A DNA stretch of 64,000 bases from a virus, in IMG/VR virus record IMGVR_UViG_3300014613_000001, positions 113,774-177,773 of that record; one strand, 5' to 3'. Each line of letters opens with the position of its first letter. Within the stretch, counting starts at the first letter, position 1. Shown piece by piece: positions 2 to 36,925 of the stretch. The notes below the pieces were generated by a model. The model was not told where the DNA came from. It worked only from the letters and a program-made list of their open reading frames with translations, and searched no databases. Made by a program: the position numbers and the translations under genes.

Positions 2-382
2 GACCAACCTTCTCAGATGGCACGTCCTGCAGAGGTCACCAGCCAGGAGAAGATGATCGCCTCGAACGAAGCGGCCATCGACTTCACCAAACGAGATGCC
101 AAGGCGGTACCGAAGAAGCGGATGGGAGAGGTTCTGGATGAACCCGCCCAGAGCAAGAGCGGAGACAGTGTGCTCCAAGATGCTCTGGGGTCGGACCTGG
201 TGAACCAGGCTGGGGCCAAAGTGGCTTCTGCTCTGGACGCCGTGCAGAAGATCGCAAGTGAAGGTTGCCAATGCGGCGGCCAAGGAGCTTGTAACTTCTG
301 CAAGATCGCTTCTCGAGTCGAGCAGAAGAGGCAGGGACTGGTTGGCTCCCGCGCCGTCGCTGCTCATGGTATGGGCCGGTAA
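2..382 (+). CDS. 5'-truncated head-associated/scaffold-like protein
   Basis: Frame is open to the window edge upstream of ATG 17; three K-[VI]-A-S motifs; sits two genes before the capsid gene. Confidence 0.6.
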   Translation, partial: DQPSQMARPAEVTSQEKMIASNEAAIDFTKRDAKAVPKKRMGEVLDEPAQSKSGDSVLQDALGSDLVNQAGAKVASALDAVQKIASEGCQCGGQGACNFCKIASRVEQKRQGLVGSRAVAAHGMGR

Positions 383-391
383 GGAGGACAC

Positions 392-754
392 ATGGAAAAG
401 CTCAGCGCAGACAAAGTCCTTGCCGTCTTCGGATCGGTTCCTTCGACGCTCAGAAAGCTGGCCTCGGAGCGGGACGCGGCACAGGTCGAAAACCTGGAGC
501 TCAAGCGTCAGCTTCGTGAACTCCGGCTGAATGAGCGTGTGGAGAAGATCGCTCAGGAGGTTCACGACAAGGGCATTCAGCAGGGCCGAACCGTGGAAGA
601 GACGAGAGAGTTCCTGCTTCAAAAGGCTGCTGCGGGGAAGCTCGACATCATCGAGCAGGCCGTCGACATGACGTCCCGTCAAGCAAGTCTTGGAATCCTT
701 GGGGATCTTCCCAAGGGTGGGGAGAGCTCTCTCGACGAATTCGTCGTCAGCTGA
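392..754 (+). CDS. Coiled-coil scaffold-like head protein
   Basis: AGGAGG RBS; coiled-coil LELKRQLRELRLNERVEKIAQE; position before capsid genes. Confidence 0.6.
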   Translation: MEKLSADKVLAVFGSVPSTLRKLASERDAAQVENLELKRQLRELRLNERVEKIAQEVHDKGIQQGRTVEETREFLLQKAAAGKLDIIEQAVDMTSRQASLGILGDLPKGGESSLDEFVVS

Positions 755-787
755 ACCGGTTCTCTGGCAAGGGTGAGGTGAAAGGCT

Positions 788-1261
788 ATGATTCAGACAT
801 TCAGAATCGTCGGTGAGTCGCACGCCAACCTACTCATCAGATCCTATCTCGTAGAGACGGCAGCGCTGTTGGACTTCAACAACGCCAACCCCCTCGAGAT
901 GGGCGAGTGGTTGACGATCAACGCGAGCAACCGGCTTGCGAGGGCCGCAAACCCAGGTGTCACTCCGGGACCCTTCGTGATGTACGCGGAGAAGGGCCGG
1001 TCGGATACCCAGGGTATCAGCGGCAGGGGCAAGGTCCCGATCATCATGGGCGGGGTCTATATCGGTGAGACGCTCATCTGGAATACAGGAGCGCCTCCGG
1101 TTCTCGGCGCTCGACTCGAGGTGGCGGACGTGACGTACGACGCCTTGACGAAGTCGGGACTTCAAACACACGCAGCTGGTGCGAACCCTCGGGTAGGCCA
1201 CGTCCTTCGGACGGGGGCTTCCAACGGCGGTTGGCTTCAGTTCCTGTCGGTGTGGGAGTAG
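788..1261 (+). CDS. Putative capsid decoration/stabilising protein
   Basis: 157 aa, beta-rich, immediately upstream of the major capsid gene (synteny inference). Confidence 0.55.
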   Translation: MIQTFRIVGESHANLLIRSYLVETAALLDFNNANPLEMGEWLTINASNRLARAANPGVTPGPFVMYAEKGRSDTQGISGRGKVPIIMGGVYIGETLIWNTGAPPVLGARLEVADVTYDALTKSGLQTHAAGANPRVGHVLRTGASNGGWLQFLSVWE

Positions 1262-1270
1262 GAGGAGATC

Positions 1271-2401
1271 ATGAACAACCTACCTGCAGAGGTGTGGAAC
1301 GGCATGTTCCTCGACAAACTCAACACCGCGGAGGGCAAGGAGAAAGTCGCCGAGTTCGGTGGCGAATACATCCGTGACCACCTGCGTGAGGTTGCGTTCT
1401 GTCGGAACATCATTCCGCCGGTCAACGTGACAAAGAGCGACGCCCGCGCGTCGATCCACCACGATACCCTCGTGATGGTCGAGGAGATCGAGCCTCAAAG
1501 CCGCGCGATGACGCTCAACTTCCGCGGCCAACCCGATGTCCGCATCATCCGTGCCGACAGATGCGAAGTTCCCTTCTTCATGATCAGCTCCGAGCGGTTC
1601 GAGAAGTGGGAAGAAGAGCTTCTCGTCTACCGGATGAAGATCACCAAGGTGATCGAAGACAACAGCATCAAGGACATCCAGGAGATCGAGGACCGCGAGT
1701 TCTTGATCCACTGCGAGGCGGCATGCCAGGCGCTCCAACAGGAAGCCAACGGCGGCGCCGTTACGTCTTTGCATCAGACCACCATCCTCGCCGGCACCGT
1801 CGTGGAGAGCTCCATCCGCAAGGGTGCGCTCGCCCGCGTCGATGCCAACAACGACAGCTTCGTCTGGCCGCTGCAACGCCAAGACATCATCAACGGCCAC
1901 AAGCTCCTGGATGGCAACCGTCTCCGCTGCGAGAAGGCTCTGCTCACCGAGTCGGACTTCGACGACGTGAACCAGTGGACAGTCGAGGACTTCGGCGACA
2001 AGCTCCAGTCCGAGACCGCCGTGGAGGGCTACAAGTACTCCACCCTGATCGGACGTGGGTTCGTCCGGACCATAAAGACGGACATCCTTCGCCCCGGGAA
2101 CGTGTACTTCTTCACGTCCCCGGACTTCCTGGGCCGGTTCTACATCTTGAACCAGGTCAAGTTCTACATCGACAAGGTGGTGAACTTGATCACGTGGCAG
2201 GCGTGGGAGACCATCGCAATGGCGATCCTCAACGTCGCCGCGGTTCGAAAGATCGAGCTGTACAGCGGTGATGCCACTGCCAACGACACCGACGGTATCG
2301 TGGCGGCGGGGACTGTCACACCGGTGGCCGAGGAGGATCTCGGGGCCATGAACAACCGAGTCGCGGACGAGGTGTTCTTCCCCGCGATACACTTCTTCTA
2401 G
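1271..2401 (+). CDS. Major capsid protein (HK97-fold expected)
   Basis: 376 aa, strong RBS, very biased C/G-ending codons, followed by an intrinsic terminator; size and position fit an MCP. Confidence 0.8.
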   Translation: MNNLPAEVWNGMFLDKLNTAEGKEKVAEFGGEYIRDHLREVAFCRNIIPPVNVTKSDARASIHHDTLVMVEEIEPQSRAMTLNFRGQPDVRIIRADRCEVPFFMISSERFEKWEEELLVYRMKITKVIEDNSIKDIQEIEDREFLIHCEAACQALQQEANGGAVTSLHQTTILAGTVVESSIRKGALARVDANNDSFVWPLQRQDIINGHKLLDGNRLRCEKALLTESDFDDVNQWTVEDFGDKLQSETAVEGYKYSTLIGRGFVRTIKTDILRPGNVYFFTSPDFLGRFYILNQVKFYIDKVVNLITWQAWETIAMAILNVAAVRKIELYSGDATANDTDGIVAAGTVTPVAEEDLGAMNNRVADEVFFPAIHFF

Positions 2402-2430
2402 GCCGAACTGGTCGACTGCACGCGCACAAC

Positions 2431-2466
2431 GGGCGCGGCGTCAACGCGGCGTCGCGCCCTTTTTTT
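2431..2466 (+). terminator. Rho-independent terminator after the capsid gene
   Basis: GGGCGCGGCG/CGTCGCGCCC stem followed by T7. Confidence 0.85.
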
Positions 2467-2477
2467 CGGAGGTAGCG

Positions 2478-2954
2478 ATGCCCAGAATCAGCAATCCAAT
2501 CATCATTCTCAGCACTGTTCGTCGTGTGCAGACACGTACGACCAGGATTCAGCAACCGACCAGGACGCCCTTCAAGCAGTATGTGTGCGGTGGTCGACAC
2601 CGTCTCGTGCGGAATCAGCATGTCGTGGTCACCGAAGAAGAGATTCTTGCACACCGTCCGGAGCTCGAGAACTTGATCTCGACCGGCGTTATCGAGATCC
2701 GAGTGGGTTCTCCTGTCGGTCCCCTCTACGAGTTTGCTACACTCGTGGAGGACCCAGAGGAGGATGAAACGAATCCGGAGCCTGCTATCGCTGAACTCGA
2801 GGAGTCGGACTCCGCGGTTGAGCGGCAGGACACACCGAATTTCCGCGCCATGGCGAAGGCCAAGCTGGTGGAGTACTTGGTCGAGCACACGGGAGAAGAT
2901 CCCGAGGTGCTGGCAGCTATGAAGAAATCCCAGCTGCTGGAGATCGTTGAATGA
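2478..2954 (+). CDS. Hypothetical protein with C-terminal Rho-N/HeH-like helical motif
   Basis: GGAGG RBS; C-terminus NFRAMAKAKLVEYL...MKKSQLLEIVE. Confidence 0.6.
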   Translation: MPRISNPIIILSTVRRVQTRTTRIQQPTRTPFKQYVCGGRHRLVRNQHVVVTEEEILAHRPELENLISTGVIEIRVGSPVGPLYEFATLVEDPEEDETNPEPAIAELEESDSAVERQDTPNFRAMAKAKLVEYLVEHTGEDPEVLAAMKKSQLLEIVE

Positions 2955-3247
2955 GGGTGTACAACCTTACGGATCAGAGACTCGGGCCTGGGAAACCTTT
3001 TCCGCAGGTTCTGAGGATCAGTGGATTCGAAATTCAACCCGGTGGCCACACGGATTTCCCGGACAGCTTCCCGCTCCACCGCATCTCAGGATGGATGCGC
3101 GCGATTTGGGTCAGTGTGGATCACCTTCCGACCTGGTACCAGCAAGCCAGACGGACTCCTCGGCCATCTTCGACTGTGGTTACTGACGCGCCGCTCGAAG
3201 AGGACGAGAAGCTGAAAAAGCAAAGGAAGCGGAAGAAGGATGACTAG
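2951..3247 (+). CDS. Hypothetical virion-module protein
   Basis: ATGA coupling to neighbours; Lys/Arg-rich tail. Confidence 0.6.
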   Translation: MRVYNLTDQRLGPGKPFPQVLRISGFEIQPGGHTDFPDSFPLHRISGWMRAIWVSVDHLPTWYQQARRTPRPSSTVVTDAPLEEDEKLKKQRKRKKDD

Positions 3248-3764
3248 GCTTCAGGGTCTGGATCAGCCGAATATCCCCGGCGCGACTGCCGTGTTCAACC
3301 ACTTCGTGGCGCGTGTTCGGCTCTTCATGAGGGACTACGCTGAGCTCAATCGGCTTGTCGAAGGGGAGGAGAGCAACGATCGTATGATCGCTTTCGCCGT
3401 CTACGACGCCCTGAGCGATTTCAATTCGACGCCTCCGTTCATTGGGACCTATGGCTTCACCGAGTTCATGACGAACAACTGGCACCACCCTCTCATGCTC
3501 AAGACCTGCGTCTGTTTGATGGAGTCCGTGGGGATATTGCAGACGAGAAATCATCTTCCGTTTTCAGATGGCGGCCTGAACGTGTCCGTATCCGACAAGA
3601 CACCGCTCCTCCAGTCCTGGATCCAGCTCTTCAACATGCGGTGGGAGCGGTTCAAATCACAGACAAAAATGGCGAAGAACATCGCGCTGCTCTTCTCTGA
3701 GCCCGGAGGGGTCTCCAGCGAGCTCTTCATCGTGAATGGGTATTGGAGCTCAGAGTACAGCTAG
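3240..3764 (+). CDS. Putative head-tail adaptor/neck protein
   Basis: 174-aa helical protein downstream of the capsid gene; position typical of adaptors. Confidence 0.5.
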   Translation: MTRLQGLDQPNIPGATAVFNHFVARVRLFMRDYAELNRLVEGEESNDRMIAFAVYDALSDFNSTPPFIGTYGFTEFMTNNWHHPLMLKTCVCLMESVGILQTRNHLPFSDGGLNVSVSDKTPLLQSWIQLFNMRWERFKSQTKMAKNIALLFSEPGGVSSELFIVNGYWSSEYS

Positions 3765-3772
3765 GAGACGAG

Positions 3773-4252
3773 ATGGCACATTGGACTGTGAGTCAGTTTT
3801 CCCGGGAGGAGGATCTTCAAGACTTCCTCAATGGGGCTATGATCGGTAACGTGAATCTCAACACTGCAGGGGCTGACGTCGACGGCAAGACGTTTATCGT
3901 CCACAACGGTACCGGCGACAAGACGACGACCTTCGCGCCGGCCAAGGGGCGGAACTGGACCCTCAACGAGATCTTGGACGCGATCAATGCCACTATCGGT
4001 CTCGAAGGGGTGGCGACTGCCAAAGTATTCCCATCTCAGGGTGCCGGGATTGTGGCCAAGCGGAAGCTCCGCATCATGGGTGATCCGTTTCACACCATCC
4101 GGGGCAACGGTACGGCGAACGCCGAGCTCGGTTTCACTGAAGGGGCCACGCCGGCAGATGACACGATTCAGACGATCTTCGCGATGACGACGATCAACAT
4201 ATATGCTCTGAGCGATCCGAATACGCAGTGGATCGTTGTTCGCTACGCATAA
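3773..4252 (+). CDS. Hypothetical structural protein
   Basis: AGGAG RBS before ATG 3773; resembles the beta-rich inserted segments of the sheath protein. Confidence 0.6.
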   Translation: MAHWTVSQFSREEDLQDFLNGAMIGNVNLNTAGADVDGKTFIVHNGTGDKTTTFAPAKGRNWTLNEILDAINATIGLEGVATAKVFPSQGAGIVAKRKLRIMGDPFHTIRGNGTANAELGFTEGATPADDTIQTIFAMTTINIYALSDPNTQWIVVRYA

Positions 4253-4264
4253 GAGGAGGCGCAG

Positions 4265-5530
4265 ATGTCCCTTGATGATTTTGTGACTGAGGGTACGGGC
4301 CTTCCGTGGGTAGAGGCGGCGGCCTTCTGGGTTGATCTTCATCGACCGTATAGACAACCAGTTTTGACAAAGAGCGCGGCTCTGGGGATGCTCAAGCTCG
4401 GGTACATCCGCAAGCGGGCCATAAGCGAAGAGGAAGCGATCAAGGAGCAGCAACGCGCTGCCATGACCGATCCGAACGTCGTCTCCGCTCTGGACTACCA
4501 GGAGCAGCAGGCGGAACGAGAAGAGCTGCAGATGGCCGTGCAGCAGCTTCAGCAGCAGCTCGAGCAGACTCAGCAATCCGCGGCTCAAGCCGATCAGATG
4601 GCGCAAGAGCAATCTGCTGCAAACCAGGAGCTGCAAGCACAGGTGCAGCAGGCAGCGGTCGCACAGCAGGCCGCAACAGAGCAGATGATCGCGGCCAAAG
4701 ATACGGCGATGCAGGAGCAGGTGACCAGCCAGCAGAACAGAGAGCAGCTCATGCAGGCGGCTGATCAGCTGGCGCTGCAGCTCAAGCAGGTCGCCGCCCA
4801 ACCTACGCAGTCCGAGCAGACTGCGACGGCTGAACAGCAGCAGATGCAGCAGCAGGCACAGGCCGCTGGTGCACCAGCAGAGGGTGAGCAGCCTCCGCCC
4901 TCCTCGCGTACTGAGAAAGAGGTCACAGAGGCTCAGAAGGCCCAGGAGCAGGCAGCACGGCAGACAGAGCAGGCCCAGCAGTCCGCAGCCCAGGACCAGG
5001 CCAAGGTCCAGGTCAACGTCGGCGGGGCACCTCAGCCTCCAACCACCGCCGCCAGTCCGGTGAAGACCGGATCGGATCGTTCTGTCGAGCTCATGGCCTT
5101 GCTCGATGGTCACGTGAAACAAGGTTTCGACAAGGTCCGAGCGGCCTATGCAGGAGGGGGCGCAGTTCTTGGTGCCGGTCAAGCGGGCCTCGAACAGATG
5201 CTCAATCGGCGGAAGCACGGGAAGGACGCGCCGTCTGACAAGGAGATTGATCTGTCGGCCAAGCTCCAGGCGGCGCAGACCAAAGTGAAAAGGGATCCGA
5301 CCTATGCGAACAAGGGGGTCGTCAGCGCACTCCGGTTCCGTCACGACCTTGCGCAATCTGGAAGAGAGCACCCTCTCGGTGCCATGGGTAGGGGTGCAGT
5401 GCAGGGAGCTGTCCTGGGTTCTATCGCCGGTCCAAGCGCCCATAGACTGGGAGGCTGGGTCAAGAAGCTCGTCCAGGCCCGGGGTGCAGCAGCCGCCGCC
5501 GCGAAGGCTGCCAAAGGAGCCGTGTCATGA
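4265..5530 (+). CDS. Gln/Ala-rich coiled-coil protein with C-terminal glycine zipper
   Basis: 421 aa; long Q/A coiled coil; GRGAVQGAVLGSIAG. Confidence 0.75.
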   Translation: MSLDDFVTEGTGLPWVEAAAFWVDLHRPYRQPVLTKSAALGMLKLGYIRKRAISEEEAIKEQQRAAMTDPNVVSALDYQEQQAEREELQMAVQQLQQQLEQTQQSAAQADQMAQEQSAANQELQAQVQQAAVAQQAATEQMIAAKDTAMQEQVTSQQNREQLMQAADQLALQLKQVAAQPTQSEQTATAEQQQMQQQAQAAGAPAEGEQPPPSSRTEKEVTEAQKAQEQAARQTEQAQQSAAQDQAKVQVNVGGAPQPPTTAASPVKTGSDRSVELMALLDGHVKQGFDKVRAAYAGGGAVLGAGQAGLEQMLNRRKHGKDAPSDKEIDLSAKLQAAQTKVKRDPTYANKGVVSALRFRHDLAQSGREHPLGAMGRGAVQGAVLGSIAGPSAHRLGGWVKKLVQARGAAAAAAKAAKGAVS

Positions 5531-29862: not shown

Positions 29863-30334
29863 GAATTGGCGCGCGAAGCGCTGCCACGATTGCGGGTGCG
29901 GGCACGATGAGATTCACGAGCTTGGGTGTGATATGGAGCGTTGTCCATACTGCCTGGGACAACTGATCTCCTGTGATTGCGCCTACGAGCTGTTGGGATT
30001 GGTGGATCACGACGAGTATCCAGACACCGGAGGGCTTCCACCCAAGATATATCGCGGTGGCCTGTCCTCGGAGCAGGGAGAAAAGTGGCTTCAATTGATC
30101 AATGTAAGGGGTCGCATCCCCTATCAGAGCCCGGGGCAGCCGGGGATCGCGGACAACGTCTGGTCGGAGTTCGTCCATCCAGACGGCCACTGCTCCCTCT
30201 GTGGGAACTCAGGTGTCATTGACACACGAGGGCACGTAGAGACCGCAGCTGGTTGGAAGGTGGGGGCGAGGTGCTTCTGCATCTGCCCAAACGGGAGGGC
30301 GTGGAAGACCAGTACCGGTAACCCATCTCAATAG
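29855..30334 (+). CDS. Cys-rich hypothetical protein
   Basis: CHDC...H..GCD.ERCP.C.GQLISCDC and C-terminal C.LCGNSG.ID...C.CPNG. Confidence 0.65.
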   Translation: MGENWRAKRCHDCGCGHDEIHELGCDMERCPYCLGQLISCDCAYELLGLVDHDEYPDTGGLPPKIYRGGLSSEQGEKWLQLINVRGRIPYQSPGQPGIADNVWSEFVHPDGHCSLCGNSGVIDTRGHVETAAGWKVGARCFCICPNGRAWKTSTGNPSQ

Positions 30335-30349
30335 GGAAGCTGGATTAGA

Positions 30350-30736
30350 GTGATTGAATACTGGGCAGGCGAAGAGCCGGCCCAGCTCCACCGAGTCGGA
30401 ATCCTCTGGTGGTCAGAGGCCGACGGGCGGCTCATCGCCCGAGGGGGCTTCGACATGGCCGAAGGCTCGGCCGTTACGCTGACCGTGGTCTCCGACTCCC
30501 TCTCCGGGGAGAGGCGTTTCGACGGATCCGTCCACCCCGACCAGGTGGACGAGCTCCTTGACGCCCCGGAGGGCTACCCCCTCCGCATCGAAGAAAACTG
30601 CGGCCAGGCAGGCGAGACGTGGGCAGTCGCTGGGCCAGTCCCCCCGGAGTTTTCCTCGATTCCCCCCGGGTGGAGAATCGAGGAAAAGTGGGTGCACGGG
30701 CACCCGAGTTCATACTACGTAGTGAAGGCGATCTAG
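30350..30736 (+). CDS. Hypothetical protein, first gene of GC-rich island
   Basis: 128-aa ORF; GC-rich codon usage. Confidence 0.55.
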   Translation: MIEYWAGEEPAQLHRVGILWWSEADGRLIARGGFDMAEGSAVTLTVVSDSLSGERRFDGSVHPDQVDELLDAPEGYPLRIEENCGQAGETWAVAGPVPPEFSSIPPGWRIEEKWVHGHPSSYYVVKAI

Positions 30737-30773
30737 GTGCGTTGAGAGGGCCGAGAGGCCCAAGGAGATTGAG

Positions 30774-31137
30774 ATGAATTTTGCGAACCTGACCCCCCAC
30801 GCCATCGTCGTCCGCACGTCGGACGGCGACATCACGCTCGAGCCGACGACCCCGCCGGCTCGAGTCCAGAACACTGCAGGAAATTTCCTGCGGGAGATCG
30901 ACGGCGTCCCGATCTTCTCGGCTGACGTGCCCGGCAAGATTGAGGGGATCCCCCCCCTCACAAGAGGGCACGATGTATGTCGTGTCAGTCGTCGTGGCGG
31001 GGGCGCTGTCGCCCGAGCGACGCGTCGTGGGGGACGTAGTGGTCCCCGCCACCGGCCCGGCGGACGGGGCGATCCGATATTCAGATGGCCCGCGCCGGGG
31101 CCAGATCGAGGCCGTCACGCGGCTGAAGTTGGCGTGA
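30774..31137 (+). pseudogene. NLTPH-family phage protein frameshifted at a C8 run
   Basis: ORF 30774 N-half plus ORF 30940 C-half join as IEGIPPSQEGTMYVVS if one C is removed from 30950-30957. Confidence 0.7.
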
Positions 31138-31242
31138 CGACCGGCCCTGAGCACGGCCGAAAAAAACTGCTCATCTCGTCGCCGGTCAGATTGCTCGCGG
31201 CGGCGGGACCAAGGAAGGGCTAAGAGCCCAGAAGGAAGAGAG

Positions 31243-32523
31243 ATGACGAGGTACGTGGACCTAGACGCTGCGGCGTCCACATCCCCGCTGCCAGCAGTGG
31301 AGGATGCTGTTCGAGCCTTCCTCGCCGAGTACGGTAGTGTCCACCGGGGGAGTGGGCGCCACAGTAAATTGTCCACGGACGCCTATGACCACGCTCGTCG
31401 CGTGATCAGGCGTTTCGTGGGCGCCGGGGAGGAGGACTACGTCCTCTTCACCGGCAACACAACGGGGGCGATGAACGTCATCGCCCACCACCTCTCCTTC
31501 CTTCGGGGAGGGGTGGCGGTCAGCAGCCTGGAGCACAGCTCCTCGTTGCTGCCCTTCGTGAAAGCGGAGGGCGAGCGGGCGGTGCAAGGCCGCCAATTCG
31601 CACTGGAAGAGCTGGACTCTGTTGCCGAGCAGATCCAGCTCGCGGGTCGAAAGAATGTACACAAGTACATCATCGACCCGTTCCGCGGGATCGACCTGGA
31701 GAGCCTGGAAACTCTCCTGTCGACCCATAAGACGAAGGCGGTCGTCCTGACCGCGTCGTCGAACCTCACGGGGTACTGCCCCCCAATCCGTGAGGTTGCG
31801 CGCCTGGCTCACAGCCACGGTGCGCTGTTGGTCCTGGACGGATGCCAGTTCGTCCAGCACCACGTCCTCAACATGGAGGCTGAGGGCGTGGACTTCGTGG
31901 CCGCATCGGGCCACAAGTTCTATGCCCCCTACGGGGGTGGGTTTCTGGTAGGGCCGAAGTGGTTCTTCGACCGCTTCTTGCCCTACCAAATCGGTGGAGG
32001 CAACCTCCCGTACATCACGGGAGATGGCGAGTTTCTTCGGTTCAAGATCGAGCTTGCCCATGACCCCGGTACCCCGAACGCAGTCGGGGCCGTGGCCATG
32101 GCCGCCGCCCTCGAGGAGATGGAGAAGATCGGACTGGACCGGATCTTCTCGCACGAGAAGGCCCTCGCCATGCGGGCGCATGAGGGTCTCAGTTCCATCC
32201 CAGGAGTGGAGCTGTACGTAGAACGGGAGCGGTTGGGCACCGTCGTCCCGTTCAATCTCCGAGGGCAAGACCCCAAAGAGGTTGCCGAAATCCTCTCGAC
32301 GCAGTTTGACATCGGCGTTCGCGCCGGATCGTTCTGTGTCTATGAGGGCGTGCGGCAACTTCTCGGGATCACCCCCGAGGAGGACGCCCGAATCGCCGAG
32401 AGGGTTCGCCTCGGTGATACCAGCAGCATCCCGGGGCTCATCCGAGCCTCGGTGTGCTGGCACACGCGGACCGAGGACGTGGACCGTCTCATCGAGGCGG
32501 TTCGCGTGGTGGCAGGAGGATGA
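31243..32523 (+). CDS. Cysteine desulfurase-like PLP enzyme (aminotransferase class V, SufS-like)
   Basis: YVDLDAAAST; SGHK PLP lysine; GTPN; GVRAGSFC catalytic-Cys loop; IRAS. Confidence 0.85.
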   Translation: MTRYVDLDAAASTSPLPAVEDAVRAFLAEYGSVHRGSGRHSKLSTDAYDHARRVIRRFVGAGEEDYVLFTGNTTGAMNVIAHHLSFLRGGVAVSSLEHSSSLLPFVKAEGERAVQGRQFALEELDSVAEQIQLAGRKNVHKYIIDPFRGIDLESLETLLSTHKTKAVVLTASSNLTGYCPPIREVARLAHSHGALLVLDGCQFVQHHVLNMEAEGVDFVAASGHKFYAPYGGGFLVGPKWFFDRFLPYQIGGGNLPYITGDGEFLRFKIELAHDPGTPNAVGAVAMAAALEEMEKIGLDRIFSHEKALAMRAHEGLSSIPGVELYVERERLGTVVPFNLRGQDPKEVAEILSTQFDIGVRAGSFCVYEGVRQLLGITPEEDARIAERVRLGDTSSIPGLIRASVCWHTRTEDVDRLIEAVRVVAGG

Positions 32524-33662
32524 GTGCCGTCCTCAAGGCGCTGCGGGCCATGCCCGTGAGCGTCAACTGCTACCACGGTGACCCCACCCTCCAGTGGGGC
32601 AACACCGTTCAAAAATTGGAGGATCTCGCTGCCGAAGGCCACACGGGCCCGGTCAGCGTAATCACCAAGGGTGCCCTCGGCCCGGCGAGAGGTAGGAAGC
32701 TCGCTGAGCTGAAGGGGAGACTCCCGGGCCTGCTGGTGATGGTTTCCATCAGCGGACTAGGGAGGGAGTTCGAGAAGGCGGGACACGACCACCGGTACCG
32801 AGCTCTCGCCACCCTGCGGGAGGTGGGGGTCCCCGCCTTCGCGGCTGTCAGGCCGCTGACCCCTCCGTATAACACCACTCCAGAGGTGTTGTACGAGATC
32901 TTCTCTCGACTGCAAGCTGTCGGCTGCGAGACAGCTTGTGTGTCGGGGTTCCGAGGGGACTCATCCCTGATCGAGGCTATGGAGCCGTCGGCAGGGATCG
33001 AGTGGGTCTTGCGGGTGAAGCAGATGACGGGGTTCGACCTCGTCAAGCGGATCGCCGATCAATGCGGCGTCCGCCTGTTCACCCGTGTGTCCTGTTGTGC
33101 GTCCTACCTCACTGGGAGGACTGGGACGTACAACCCCTATTGGGGGTCGCCCCAGTTGGTTCGTTGCGAGGAGATCGGCTGTCCGCTGGTCGACTTCTGT
33201 GGACCAGTGGCCCCTGACCCAGAGGTCGTGTCCTGGCTTGAAAGAGTTGGATACGACCTTCGGGTGGAGCAGCGCTGCCAGGAGCGCTGCCGGTTCAGCG
33301 CGGACAACCGCCTGAACTGTAAGAGCTGCTGTACGACCTGCTTCGTGCAGCCGCAGCCCCGGGTGATTGTGCGCAACGCACGAACTCTCGGGGATTTGGC
33401 CTTCGTCAGGTTCGTTCTCGGCGGGACCCTTGCGGTCAAGCCGGGCATGATTGACGGAGGGGATCGAGACGTTGGGCGAGTCTCGGTTCTGAGTGAGCTC
33501 CTTGGGCAGGAGCTCCACTGCATCAATTCCTGGTGGGTGTGGGCCACCCGCAAGGAGTCCTGCTTCGGGTGCAGGTACTGTATCAGTACCCTCTACCCGG
33601 GGCAGGGCACGGTCGGCTGCCCCCCGGCTGACCTGGCCGACATGGTGGATAGTCATGTTTGA
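32520..33662 (+). CDS. Radical-SAM-like TIM-barrel protein lacking the N-terminal CX3CX2C, with Cys-rich C-terminus
   Basis: HGDP and VITKG segments parallel the neighbour's ITDP and LVTKW; C-terminal CKSCCTTC and CFGCRYC. Confidence 0.6.
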   Translation: MSAVLKALRAMPVSVNCYHGDPTLQWGNTVQKLEDLAAEGHTGPVSVITKGALGPARGRKLAELKGRLPGLLVMVSISGLGREFEKAGHDHRYRALATLREVGVPAFAAVRPLTPPYNTTPEVLYEIFSRLQAVGCETACVSGFRGDSSLIEAMEPSAGIEWVLRVKQMTGFDLVKRIADQCGVRLFTRVSCCASYLTGRTGTYNPYWGSPQLVRCEEIGCPLVDFCGPVAPDPEVVSWLERVGYDLRVEQRCQERCRFSADNRLNCKSCCTTCFVQPQPRVIVRNARTLGDLAFVRFVLGGTLAVKPGMIDGGDRDVGRVSVLSELLGQELHCINSWWVWATRKESCFGCRYCISTLYPGQGTVGCPPADLADMVDSHV

Positions 33663-34530
33663 ACCAGGAAAGCCGGCATGCCCTATCGCATGCCAGTATT
33701 GCTTCATCACGGAGCATGATACCCGGCGCGCGGTGTGGAACCGCGCTTCCATGGCGGGTGTGAACAAGGCGTGTACCTACGTCAATGTCCCGCCCTGGAT
33801 TCGCGAGGACGCCGATGCCCAGCGACGCTTTTCGGTGTTTCCCTGGGACCTGCTCAAAGGTGATGTGGTCGGTTTCACCGCGATCACCGATCCTTGCTGG
33901 CCCCGGCTGGAGCCACAACTCCGGGAATTCTTGGAGCGGGCCGGGACAGCGGCCAAAATGGTGACGCTCGTCACCAAATGGCCGCTGTCTCGCCGACAGG
34001 TTCGGTTCCTGTCCGATGTTCCGAATCTGTTCCTGGTGATCTCGATCACCGGGAACCCACCCCCAATAGAGGGGGTTCCCGTCTCCAAACACCTCGAAAC
34101 CCTTGAGAGGTGCAAAGATGCAGGGATCCCCTCACTCCCGATCGTGCACCCCTACATCAGTGGGGTGAGCGATCTGGGTTTTCTCCCCAACCTGATTGAG
34201 TTGGGGTACGACCAGGTAGGGGTAAAAGGCATCCGGTACTGCGACGCGCACATGGCGTCGTGGATGCCTTCCCTCTCCAGGGGGGCCTACCGTGGTCGTG
34301 AGGACGAGGAGGTGCTGCCAGAAGACGGCTGGCGCCAGCTCGTCGAGGACGCAGGGTTCACCCTGCGTTCTCCCAAGGATTGGTACCTCGAGCAGGTGTC
34401 AACCCTTGGTCCTCACCTAGAACGAGGTGAAGCGGAGAACCTGGTAGATCAGGTCTTCCGTCTCGCCAACGTGACATCATCGTCGGACGACGCTTCTGTC
34501 TGGGAAGCGGCCATTCGACGAAGGATGTAG
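33655..34530 (+). CDS. Radical SAM protein (spore photoproduct lyase-like architecture)
   Basis: CPIACQYC motif at the N-terminus; TDP, VTK, P.I.GVSD segments. Confidence 0.8.
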   Translation: MFEPGKPACPIACQYCFITEHDTRRAVWNRASMAGVNKACTYVNVPPWIREDADAQRRFSVFPWDLLKGDVVGFTAITDPCWPRLEPQLREFLERAGTAAKMVTLVTKWPLSRRQVRFLSDVPNLFLVISITGNPPPIEGVPVSKHLETLERCKDAGIPSLPIVHPYISGVSDLGFLPNLIELGYDQVGVKGIRYCDAHMASWMPSLSRGAYRGREDEEVLPEDGWRQLVEDAGFTLRSPKDWYLEQVSTLGPHLERGEAENLVDQVFRLANVTSSSDDASVWEAAIRRRM

Positions 34531-34572
34531 CTCTGGTACTGAGGTGAGCCGGGGAGACGGGGGGCAGACCCC

Positions 34573-34620
34573 CGCCCCCGCTCCTCGGGGGCTCGGGGCA
34601 GTGAGAGGGCCTGAAGGCCC
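34573..34620 (+). repeat. GC-rich two-hairpin leader element, copy 1
   Basis: 36-nt match (1 mismatch) to 35829-35864, then GGGCC-TGAA-GGCCC before the RBS. Confidence 0.85.
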
Positions 34621-34632
34621 GGAGGAGATGTC

Positions 34633-34878
34633 ATGAAAATAACGTTGAGAAATTCACTCCACAACACGTCCGTCCGCGTCGTCGCTCCCGAGAGCCTCGT
34701 GCTCTCTAAGAGCCAGGTCGCCAGGGCGCGCCGCGCCCTCTGCGGGATGCCCGGGTGCAAGTGCGCGAGCACGGCTCTCGGAACCTACGGCGAGAGTCCC
34801 GAGGGATCAGACGGCACCTTCTATGGTGTCGAGGACCTCTATGACGGTCGCGTTGAGCTGGTCGAGGTGACACGATGA
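34633..34878 (+). CDS. Hypothetical protein
   Basis: GGAGGAG RBS; TLRNSLHNTSV...RRALCGMPGCKC. Confidence 0.65.
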   Translation: MKITLRNSLHNTSVRVVAPESLVLSKSQVARARRALCGMPGCKCASTALGTYGESPEGSDGTFYGVEDLYDGRVELVEVTR

Positions 34879-35075
34879 CCACGACGGACCTGCAAGAGGC
34901 GGCCCTTGCCGCCCTGGCCCGAGCCCAGGAAGCAGAAGCCGCGTTGGCCCGGCTGGTGGCGGAGCACCAGCAGCTCGAGCGCCTGGTGCGCGAGCACTGG
35001 GATGCGTCTCGGCGGGCTGGTATCAGGCCCCACGACGAGCAGCTCCACGCTGGCTATCTCCGGCTGGAGCAGTAG
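34875..35075 (+). CDS. Coiled-coil hypothetical protein
   Basis: ATGA coupling. Confidence 0.55.
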   Translation: MTTTDLQEAALAALARAQEAEAALARLVAEHQQLERLVREHWDASRRAGIRPHDEQLHAGYLRLEQ

Positions 35076-35126
35076 GCCGAAACCGGGGCAACCCGGTCCG
35101 GGCGTAGGGCGCCCGCTGACGAGGCC
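35075..35126 (+). ncRNA. Type II hammerhead ribozyme
   Basis: GGCC-GAAA-CCGGG(GCAA)CCCGG-TC-CGGGCG(TAGGG)CGCCCG-CTGACGA-GGCC: full catalytic core with GUC cleavage triplet. Confidence 0.9.
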
Positions 35127-35148
35127 GTCAGAGCAAGGAGAAGAGAAA

Positions 35149-35616
35149 ATGAACGATCAGAATGAAGCCATCGAAACCACCGGCCGTATTCCTCGGATCG
35201 TCGGCCCCGACGGGGCAGAGGCAGTCGCCACCGAGGTCGGGATCTGCGCCGACTGCGGTTGCGCCGGCCTGGTGTCCGACTGGCCGGGACGCGGCGCGCT
35301 ATGCGCCGCAGCGGATGATGGCCGGCTGATCTGTGACGACTGCGCCGAGCTCGAGGCCGAGCCCGAGCCCATCCCGGAGCCCGTCCCGTGCACGAACGGG
35401 ATAGGCTACGACTGCCACTCGGGGGGCTATCTCCCCGAGTGGTTGATCGCGGCGGTGGCCTCAGCGATAGCCGAGGCCCACGACGACGGAGTGTCGTCGT
35501 GCGGCGGGGGCGCCCCCCTCGCCAACTGGGACCTCGACTGTCCCCTCTGGTCGTCGGAGGGGGAGCGTTCGGCCCGCCATCGGGCCGTCGAGGCCCTGAA
35601 GAAGGGGGTGAAGTGA
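35149..35616 (+). CDS. Cys-rich hypothetical protein downstream of the ribozyme
   Basis: AAGGAG RBS; CADC...CDDC. Confidence 0.6.
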   Translation: MNDQNEAIETTGRIPRIVGPDGAEAVATEVGICADCGCAGLVSDWPGRGALCAAADDGRLICDDCAELEAEPEPIPEPVPCTNGIGYDCHSGGYLPEWLIAAVASAIAEAHDDGVSSCGGGAPLANWDLDCPLWSSEGERSARHRAVEALKKGVK

Positions 35617-35807
35617 TGTATGTAGTTCTGTGTGATCTCGATGAAGGAGCTCATATCTCCTCCTGCCACGAGACGCGGGAGGAGGGGGAGGCGGCACTAG
35701 CCGCCGTCCCGCTCCGAGGAATAACACACGATTGGGCCTCGCTCGTCGAGGTCCATCCGGGGGTGCCCCCGCGGATGGTCGCGGGAAGATGCCCCGACGG
35801 AGAGTAG
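35616..35807 (+). CDS. Hypothetical protein
   Basis: Coupled start; HETREEGEAAL. Confidence 0.55.
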   Translation: MYVVLCDLDEGAHISSCHETREEGEAALAAVPLRGITHDWASLVEVHPGVPPRMVAGRCPDGE

Positions 35808-35828
35808 ACCTCTCCCGTCCCTGGTCAC

Positions 35829-35875
35829 CGCCCCCGCTTCTCGGGGGCTCGGGGCAGTGAGAGGCCGAGAGGCCC
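35829..35875 (+). repeat. GC-rich two-hairpin leader element, copy 2
   Basis: CGCCCCCGCTTCTCGGGGGCTCGGGGCAGTGAGAGG then GGCC-GAGA-GGCC. Confidence 0.85.
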
Positions 35876-35985
35876 AAGAGGAGCTGATATGGCAAGCAAA
35901 AGTGGTCTCCTCATCCCGATGGAGACTCGATCATCTTGCATGATCCACAACATGGTTCGCCAGATACCGAAGTGGGAGAGTCACA

Positions 35986-36492
35986 ATGAGCAGCAAGTAC
36001 GAGAGCATTGGTCGGGGAACGACGAGAGCGATTCTGCGTCGTCACGCTAGCAGCGAGGAACAAAGTTTGCAAAGTCCGCAGGATGAAACGAGTGATCAGC
36101 TTCGTGAGGAGATGAACTACATATACGCTGCACTGGATGAAATCATATCGGCGAATGCCCGGGCCCGGCACGAGGGTCGCGACTCAGCTGTGACGCAGCA
36201 TATGACCGTGCTGGCTCGAGGTGGTTTTGCCGCGCTCGAGTACGCCCGGACGTATTTCATGCTCCTCAACGATACTCGGATCGATTCCGAGAGGCAAAAG
36301 TCCGAACAGGTCAAGAAGGACCGTCTGCTTCATCAAGCGATGGGCCTTCTGGTCACTGTTTGTGGAAAGGAGCGCGTGCCAGCTGAGTGGAGAAGGGATC
36401 TGGCGGCATTCATTGACGAACACGCCGTCGTCAAGTCAGAGGATTTCATTGACGAACACGCCGTCGTCAAGTCAGAGGATGCCGATGCCTGA
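35986..36492 (+). CDS. Hypothetical protein with exact 36-bp tandem duplication
   Basis: FIDEHAVVKSED x2 (36409-36480). Confidence 0.6.
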   Translation: MSSKYESIGRGTTRAILRRHASSEEQSLQSPQDETSDQLREEMNYIYAALDEIISANARARHEGRDSAVTQHMTVLARGGFAALEYARTYFMLLNDTRIDSERQKSEQVKKDRLLHQAMGLLVTVCGKERVPAEWRRDLAAFIDEHAVVKSEDFIDEHAVVKSEDADA

Positions 36493-36925
36493 CTTGGTAG
36501 TGAGGGTTGAAAGTCCTGGCCAGCCCAAGGAGAGCTACCGGGACAGTCCGTTGACCCAAGAATTATCGTCCATGGATCAGCTTCGGGTAGATGTCGACGA
36601 CCTGCGGAAGAAGAACGGAAGTCTCACGCTGAGAGTTGCTAAACTCGAGAGCCGAACCTCAGGACTGGGCGAAGACATACTGCGCCTATCTGGTTCCCGG
36701 GTGCAGTCTCCGATAGGCCGAGCGATATTCCTGCTCGTCAGCGTGATTGTCATGGCGGTCTGCATGATCGTCATGGAGATCGCGCTTCTTTTCGCGTTCA
36801 GTAGAATCGACTGGGAGGGTTCGGGCGGCTTTGAGTACATCGTCTACACTATCTGCGGAGCAAGCTGTCTTGCACTCTCCATAGCCGCATGGACCAAGCT
36901 CCACGACATGCTCGCAAAGCGCTAG
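36485..36925 (+). CDS. Coiled-coil plus two-TM membrane protein
   Basis: Two hydrophobic helices in the C-terminal half. Confidence 0.6.
   Translation: MPDLVVRVESPGQPKESYRDSPLTQELSSMDQLRVDVDDLRKKNGSLTLRVAKLESRTSGLGEDILRLSGSRVQSPIGRAIFLLVSVIVMAVCMIVMEIALLFAFSRIDWEGSGGFEYIVYTICGASCLALSIAAWTKLHDMLAKR

Follow-up and report, generated by a model that had tools for sequence, protein, structure and literature searches.

What is the GC-rich segment that separates two co-directional genes of a large phage, and what might it do in the message that carries it? The segment lies within the window, by which we mean the whole 64-kb stretch of DNA analysed, which forms the final 64 kb of a phage record from IMG/VR that is 177,773 bp long and bears direct terminal repeats; the DNA runs that contain the phage stretch are of groundwater origin. 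An initial annotation, made from the letters alone, had described the segment as a canonical type II hammerhead ribozyme that splits a polycistronic mRNA and gives the downstream message a 5'-OH end. The structural part of this description is confirmed here: positions 35075-35126 are a genuine type II hammerhead motif between two phage genes. The functional part had already been put forward in 2011, when Perreault et al. proposed that phage hammerheads process long transcripts into mRNAs of single-gene or operon length (PMC3088659). Several prophage-type hammerheads cut in vitro and in E. coli (PMC3088659), three type II hammerheads of Desulfovibrio vulgaris are active in vivo as judged by cyPhyRNA-seq (PMC8782182), and the biological purpose of bacterial and phage hammerheads is still called open in reviews (PMC6765202, PMC6155905).

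Anatomy of the element

The element reads GGCC-GAAA-CCGGG-GCAA-CCCGG-UC-CGGGCG-UAGGG-CGCCCG-CUGACGA-GGCC on the plus strand (52 nt), and the segment coordinates of the initial annotation proved exact, base for base (Table 1). The core strand C3 U4 G5 A6 N7 G8 A9 is found as CUGACGA, G12 A13 A14 lie within GAAA, A35082-U35097 forms the A15.1-U16.1 pair, and C35098 is H17. Watson-Crick pairs next to the core, which Perreault et al. used as a rejection criterion (PMC3088659), are present at G35123-C35078 (10.1-11.1), C35099-G35115 (1.1-2.1) and A35082-U35097 (15.1-16.1). Folded in isolation, the 52-mer adopts exactly the hammerhead three-way junction, and because stems I and III are capped while stem II is open, the permutation is type II; by eye, the flanks offer no extension of stem II past 4 bp. 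The identification thus stands, with every sequence and topology feature of the class in place and with membership of a covarying phage family, described below.

The element had also been said to begin at the upstream TAG, and the G of that codon is indeed the first G of stem II. Its distance from the ribosome-binding site needs correction: it does not end about 20 nt before it, but 8 nt before AAGGAG and 22 nt before the ATG at 35149.

Table 1 Features of the hammerhead locus, in window coordinates.
Feature	Position	Strand	Basis or remark
SufS-like PLP enzyme	31243-32523
380-aa protein, without Pfam match	32520-33662
Weak radical SAM match	33493-34530
Upstream 66-aa ORF, stop TAG 35073-35075	34875-35075	+	TAG supplies A35074 and the first stem II G
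Sole block shared with contig L005, 78.8% identity	35073-35366	+	blastn and tblastx, L005 against the whole phage
Conserved A 5' of stem II	35074	+	A in 105/105 family members among the matches listed
Stem II 3'-side strand GGCC (positions 11.4-11.1)	35075-35078	+	pairs with 35123-35126 in the 52-mer fold
Core box GAAA (G12 A13 A14 A15.1)	35079-35082	+	RF02276 core alignment
Stem III hairpin: A-U and CCGGG/CCCGG, loop GCAA	35082-35097	+	sequence, 52-mer fold
Stem III parts: CCGGG, GCAA, CCCGG	35083-35087, 35088-35091, 35092-35096	+	sequence
Cleavage triplet GUC	35096-35098	+	predicted scissile bond C35098/C35099, from hammerhead numbering
Stem I hairpin, 6 bp and 5-nt U...G loop	35099-35115	+	sequence, family layout
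Stem I parts: CGGGCG, UAGGG, CGCCCG	35099-35104, 35105-35109, 35110-35115	+
Core box CUGACGA (C3-A9, N7 = C)	35116-35122	+	sequence, RF02276 alignment
Stem II 5'-side strand GGCC (positions 10.1-10.4)	35123-35126	+	sequence, 52-mer fold
Competing self-masking hairpin CUGACG-AGGC-CGUCAG	35116-35131	+	core box, stem II and tail GUCAG (35127-35131)
Shine-Dalgarno AAGGAG (35135-35140) and ATG 35149 of the downstream gene	35135-35151	+	both kept in L005
Downstream 155-aa Cys-rich orphan gene	35149-35616	+

Gene context

Upstream, on what would be the same mRNA, lie a SufS-like gene, two radical-SAM-like genes and ORFs of 81 and 66 aa; downstream, a 64-aa ORF begins within the 155-aa ORF. Pfam and PHROGs returned no match for the small flanking ORFs, the 155-aa gene included. 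Neither a promoter-like nor a terminator-like site was found between the flanking genes, from which we infer that they are co-transcribed. A reading of the hairpins as a terminator was ruled out, since a U tract is missing and no terminator-like site is present.

Several further observations concern the neighbourhood. The 155-aa protein, with its paired Cys motifs (CADCGC ... CDDC), probably binds zinc; a protein atlas gave only weak zinc-ribbon-like leads. The region 30000-36000 has a G+C content of 0.63-0.65, compared with 0.53-0.63, mostly 0.54-0.60, in the rest of the window. A 64-nt direct repeat (34572-34635 and 35828-35891, 83% identical), which consists of two GC-rich hairpins followed by GGAGGAG and ATG, brackets a 1.26-kb four-gene cassette with the hammerhead inside. 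Other contigs of a groundwater run carry the first 37 nt of this repeat with different flanks, so that it occurs in other contexts too. Further downstream, a perfect 36-nt tandem duplication (36409-36480) in a 168-aa ORF (35986-36492) repeats the peptide FIDEHAVVKSED.

A covarying family of phage hammerheads

The Rfam Hammerhead_II model (RF02276), the check that the initial annotation had named, aligns to the element end to end and gives it 28.0 bits, with E = 7e-4 when 301 nt are searched and 0.16 for the entire window. This is below the gathering cut-off of 37 bits, which is a curation threshold and not a biological feature. Apart from the hammerhead, Rfam hits in the window at E<=5 are noise, and no match to other ribozyme classes or to tRNAs reaches gathering level anywhere in the phage. 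The Rfam score alone leaves the element undecided; three further tests settle it.

The 177,773-bp phage has 198 CTGANGA boxes, counting both strands, and of these a type II descriptor picks out the window element alone. A relaxed descriptor gave 0.27 hits per genome in 150 dinucleotide-preserving genome shuffles, and a descriptor demanding at least 5, 3 and 5 pairs in stems I, II and III gave none in the same number of shuffles, even though these thresholds are looser than the 7, 4 and 6 pairs that it counts at the real site.

A family pattern, GGCCGAAAC-N(8-24)-GTC-N(12-30)-CTGANGAGGCC, was then searched in IMG/VR. At least 120 stretches match this narrow pattern, compared with about three expected by chance from a rough hand calculation, and many of the contigs among the matches listed have 2-7 copies, spaced by a few hundred bases. 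Applied to the family loci, RF02276 gave 21 matches in 14 loci at 26-41.7 bits; seven of these exceed the cut-off, which places the window copy in the sub-threshold tail of a recognised family. Among the matches listed, a stem I layout of 17 nt (6 bp and a 5-nt loop) is shared by 91 of 105 members, and in these the first base of loop I is always U (91/91) and the last usually G (79/91); the window element has all three features. The search pattern demands none of them, nor the A immediately 5' of stem II (Table 1). By analogy with the loop-loop contacts of natural hammerheads, invariant A35074 and the loop I U likely form a tertiary contact.

The stems covary. In a set of 30 equal-length members, picked by length only, 99.8% of the cells pair, and 86 cells are changed on both sides compared with 20 in shuffles; such both-side changes occur in 9 of 16 pairs, and pairing drops to 33-43% when the 3' partners are slid by 1-3 columns. 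A family covariance model built from 28 members, with the window element and its closest homologue (L005, below) left out, scores the window at 66 bits and L005 at 74.7, the next best score in the whole phage being 15. About 22 bases match the family by construction, because the search pattern was derived from the window element; the remainder of the 66-bit score is independent.

Family members also share a genomic position. Among 116 non-redundant members with enough flank in the matches listed, 111 have a same-strand ORF (at least 40 codons) ending within 20 nt upstream, 44 share the G of a TAG with GGCC as the window element does, and 87 are followed by a Shine-Dalgarno sequence and a start codon at a median distance of 28 nt (22 nt in the window). 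The typical place of a family member is immediately downstream of a stop codon and about 20-30 nt ahead of the following start. The window element has this arrangement too, and Perreault et al. described it for prophages (PMC3088659).

Homologous copies ahead of related genes

Among 5.8 billion proteins, the 155-aa protein has a single relative, encoded on a 2,660-bp MAG contig (L005), and this gene too is preceded by the ribozyme. The L005 copy is identical except in stem III, which reads CCGCC-UUCG-GGCGG in place of CCGGG-GCAA-CCCGG, that is, two compensatory pairs and a new tetraloop. A 151-nt groundwater contig matches 35115-35169 with six differences, and its 5' part (...GCC-UUCG-GGCGG-UC-CUCGCG-UGAUG-CGCGA(G)) represents a third variant: its stem I differs by two compensatory pairs, and its loop keeps the U...G; its stem III also reads UUCG-GGCGG, as in L005.

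Similarity between the phage and L005 is confined to one block (Table 1), which spans the TA of the stop codon, the ribozyme, the leader and the 5' part of the gene. It begins 2 nt before the 5' edge of the ribozyme and stops inside the downstream gene, and the upstream ORFs of the two are unrelated. From this single block it follows that ribozyme, leader and the first ~72 codons travel together, and a homology block that starts at the ribozyme edge suggests that ribozyme, leader and gene start are a travelling unit. In the proteins, only the first ~66 residues are shared (80% identity), and the C-terminal halves differ.

Searches elsewhere returned little. The region 33500-36500 had no blastn match in cultured phages, neither the 155-aa gene nor the radical SAM gene had a relative in IMG/VR, metagenome contigs yielded no relative of the 155-aa gene, stem I plus core had no exact counterpart in either collection, and Pfam and PHROGs gave nothing for the L005 genes. 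A separate observation in L005 (395-402) and in many family members (L033, L038, L041, L079) is that GCC-TAG ahead of the hammerhead creates the palindrome GCCUAGGC across stop codon and stem II, for which we identified neither a pairing partner nor a role.

A 3' tail that masks the catalytic core

Most, though not all, type II hammerheads form a pseudoknot of at least four pairs between loop I and the 3' tail, which matters for speed at 0.5 mM Mg2+ (PMC3088659). The window element does not have one: UAGGG and the 22-nt tail share at most 2 bp of continuous complementarity, and across the family the variable loop I bases show no covariation with either flank. On these two grounds a pseudoknot of loop I with either flank was ruled out.

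The tail pairs with the core instead. GUCAG (35127-35131) is complementary to CUGAC, and C35126 pairs with G8, which yields a 6-bp hairpin that is incompatible with stem II and has the catalytic strand buried in it. With the tail included, the minimum-free-energy fold is this masking hairpin, although at -30.9 kcal/mol compared with -29.0 kcal/mol for the hammerhead fold, both without tertiary terms, the two are nearly isoenergetic. It is complete only 5 nt after stem II. The 3' product of cleavage is predicted to fold from its first base into two adjacent hairpins (-20.2 kcal/mol) that end 3 nt before the Shine-Dalgarno sequence.

Across the family, tail and core change in concert. In 137 non-redundant members among the matches listed, 42 of the 77 with N7 = C carry GUCAG and none carries AUCAG, and 18 of the 51 with N7 = U carry AUCAG and none GUCAG. 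The tally of 42 C/G and 18 U/A combinations includes no mismatched case (Fisher p = 1e-15, a value that ignores relatedness), and the tail carriers comprise 46 distinct stem combinations. Since N7 is the sole free base of the core strand and the first tail position is its strongest mutual-information partner, the masking hairpin appears to be selected and not accidental. A full-text search found no published description of a self-masking tail or of N7 covariation, which does not prove that none exists.

We tentatively regard the 3' tail, at somewhat under even odds, as a selected add-on of ~40% of this phage hammerhead subfamily that acts either as a product trap and 5' cap or as a translation-coupled switch. 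As a trap or cap it would make the cut irreversible, and the downstream mRNA would start with two hairpins; as a switch it would make cutting depend on translation of the upstream ORF, the stop codon of which overlaps stem II.

A second conserved 3' tail, AGCAGUCUC / AGCACGUCUCACAC, occurs in L007, L010, L039, L051 and L105. It is independent of N7 and not complementary to the core box, and a short loop I pseudoknot (GAG/CUC) may exist in some copies, inconsistently.

Proposed mechanism and alternative readings

Judged from its sequence, the element is probably (at a rough probability of 0.78) a functional type II hammerhead that would cut within a plus-strand, multi-gene mRNA of this large phage; a stabilising role specifically is less certain than a genuine cutting hammerhead. 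In the proposed sequence of events, GGCC at 35075-35078 would pair with 35123-35126 and the junction would form transiently, helped by the A/U contact, whereupon the RNA would cut itself between C35098 and C35099. Because only the four GGCC pairs hold the cut products together, these would separate. With stem II lost, the 3' product would refold, CUGACG pairing with the tail CGUCAG and locking the core strand, and this would block re-ligation and shield the new 5' end. The upstream message (SufS-like, two radical-SAM-like and two small ORFs) would then terminate with the stem III hairpin and carry a 2',3'-cyclic phosphate, and the downstream message, from the 155-aa gene onward, would start with a structured 5'-OH end. 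We propose that the cut and the locked 5' end uncouple expression of the 155-aa gene from the upstream operon. Cutting in vivo and any consequence for message stability or translation are what we infer from this arrangement.

The same data allow a conditional reading, in which two things could jointly hold the cut back, the masking hairpin and ribosomes that end translation at the overlapping TAG. A real hammerhead might then be largely silenced, acting as a conditional or slow switch for untranslated or stalled messages or persisting as a decaying relic, and not as a constitutive processing site. Since the masking hairpin exceeds the active fold in stability by ~2 kcal/mol and is complete only 5 nt past stem II, a large part of the RNA may be inactive. 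The element lacks a pseudoknot that could speed its folding, its masking tail is under selection, and the stop codon overlaps stem II in the window and in 44 of 116 relatives, where a terminating ribosome would be expected to unwind it. Set against this, tertiary contacts could make up a difference of 2 kcal/mol, and the perfectly canonical core and the compensatory changes by which the stems keep pairing in three homologous copies argue for ongoing selection on the active fold. Cleavage being irreversible once the products have parted, even a minority active state would still drain the pool. We therefore consider silencing unlikely, though it is the strongest competitor of the cutting hammerhead.

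A poorer account of the locus is that the ribozyme mainly marks a junction of exchangeable gene modules, a phage recombination site at which RNA cutting is secondary. The abrupt start of the L005 similarity 2 nt before the ribozyme, its end in the downstream gene and the unrelated upstream genes would fit such a site, as would the arrays of copies that separate small non-conserved genes and the GC-rich cassette, bracketed by another repeat, in which the element lies. This account draws on one boundary, however, and a recombination site needs neither a catalytic core nor compensatory stem changes nor invariant bases of a tertiary contact. A junction is also compatible with RNA processing, so the two are not exclusive and may well coexist; as the main explanation it is improbable.

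Weakest of all, and very hard to credit, is a chance look-alike in which GC-rich hairpins happen to carry GAAA and CUGACGA: many stretches of DNA were screened, the Rfam score lies under the cut-off with E = 0.16 for the window, and Perreault et al. warned of accidental consensus matches in large databases (PMC3088659), but no shuffle in 150 reaches the quality of the real site, an independent family model gives 66 bits, the invariant A(-1) and the loop U are both present, and the same element with compensatory changes precedes a homologous gene in two other contigs.

Comparison with known hammerheads

The cutting hammerhead proposed here resembles the type II elements of Perreault et al. (PMC3088659, RF02276) in its identical catalytic core, in its capped stems I and III and open stem II, in its position between co-directional phage genes and in the transcript processing proposed for both; its relatives likewise form arrays flanking single small genes. 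Unlike typical type II elements, it has a 4-bp GGCC stem II, a score of 28 bits and no pseudoknot joining loop I to the 3' tail; what it has instead is the invariant A before stem II, the U...G loop I and a 3' tail that pairs with the core. Unlike clustered prophage hammerheads, it stands alone: the 177,773-bp phage has no second copy. The Desulfovibrio vulgaris trio belongs to the same class and also lies near hypothetical or phage-like genes; those ribozymes come from another organism and have different sequences, and cutting in cells was demonstrated for them, whereas for the window copy it is predicted.

RiboJ, an engineered ribozyme insulator, consists of a hammerhead followed by a hairpin ahead of the ribosome-binding site, a layout that fixes the 5' end of the downstream gene regardless of the upstream sequence. 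The window shows the same order of ribozyme, hairpin and Shine-Dalgarno sequence, in an element that, unlike RiboJ, is natural and of the type II permutation. Because its hairpin is built from the core strand of the ribozyme itself, hairpin and active fold are mutually exclusive. Viroid hammerheads offer a further parallel: there too the catalytic fold faces competition from another pairing, and such alternative folds tune self-cleavage. The setting differs, since viroid ribozymes serve rolling-circle replication of circular RNAs and the context of the window element is the mRNA of a DNA phage.

The window element is a clean new example of a class known in phages since 2011 and, as one singly placed copy, matters little on its own. 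Three aspects reach further, one of them the apparent travelling unit of ribozyme, leader and gene start. Another is that many phage relatives, like the window copy itself, fall below the Rfam cut-off, and routine annotation therefore undercounts phage hammerheads. The self-masking tail with its N7 covariation, for its part, offers a concrete handle on the purpose and regulation of the cut in bacterial and phage hammerheads.

Among the matches listed, arrays of IMG/VR relatives reach seven pattern copies, and Rfam added three further copies in one contig. This contig (L013, IMGVR_UViG_3300038412_000035) carries at least ten type II hammerheads within 5 kb on the minus strand (~160-5160), seven detected by the pattern and three by Rfam, roughly one per small gene, with scores some of which lie above and some below the Rfam cut-off.
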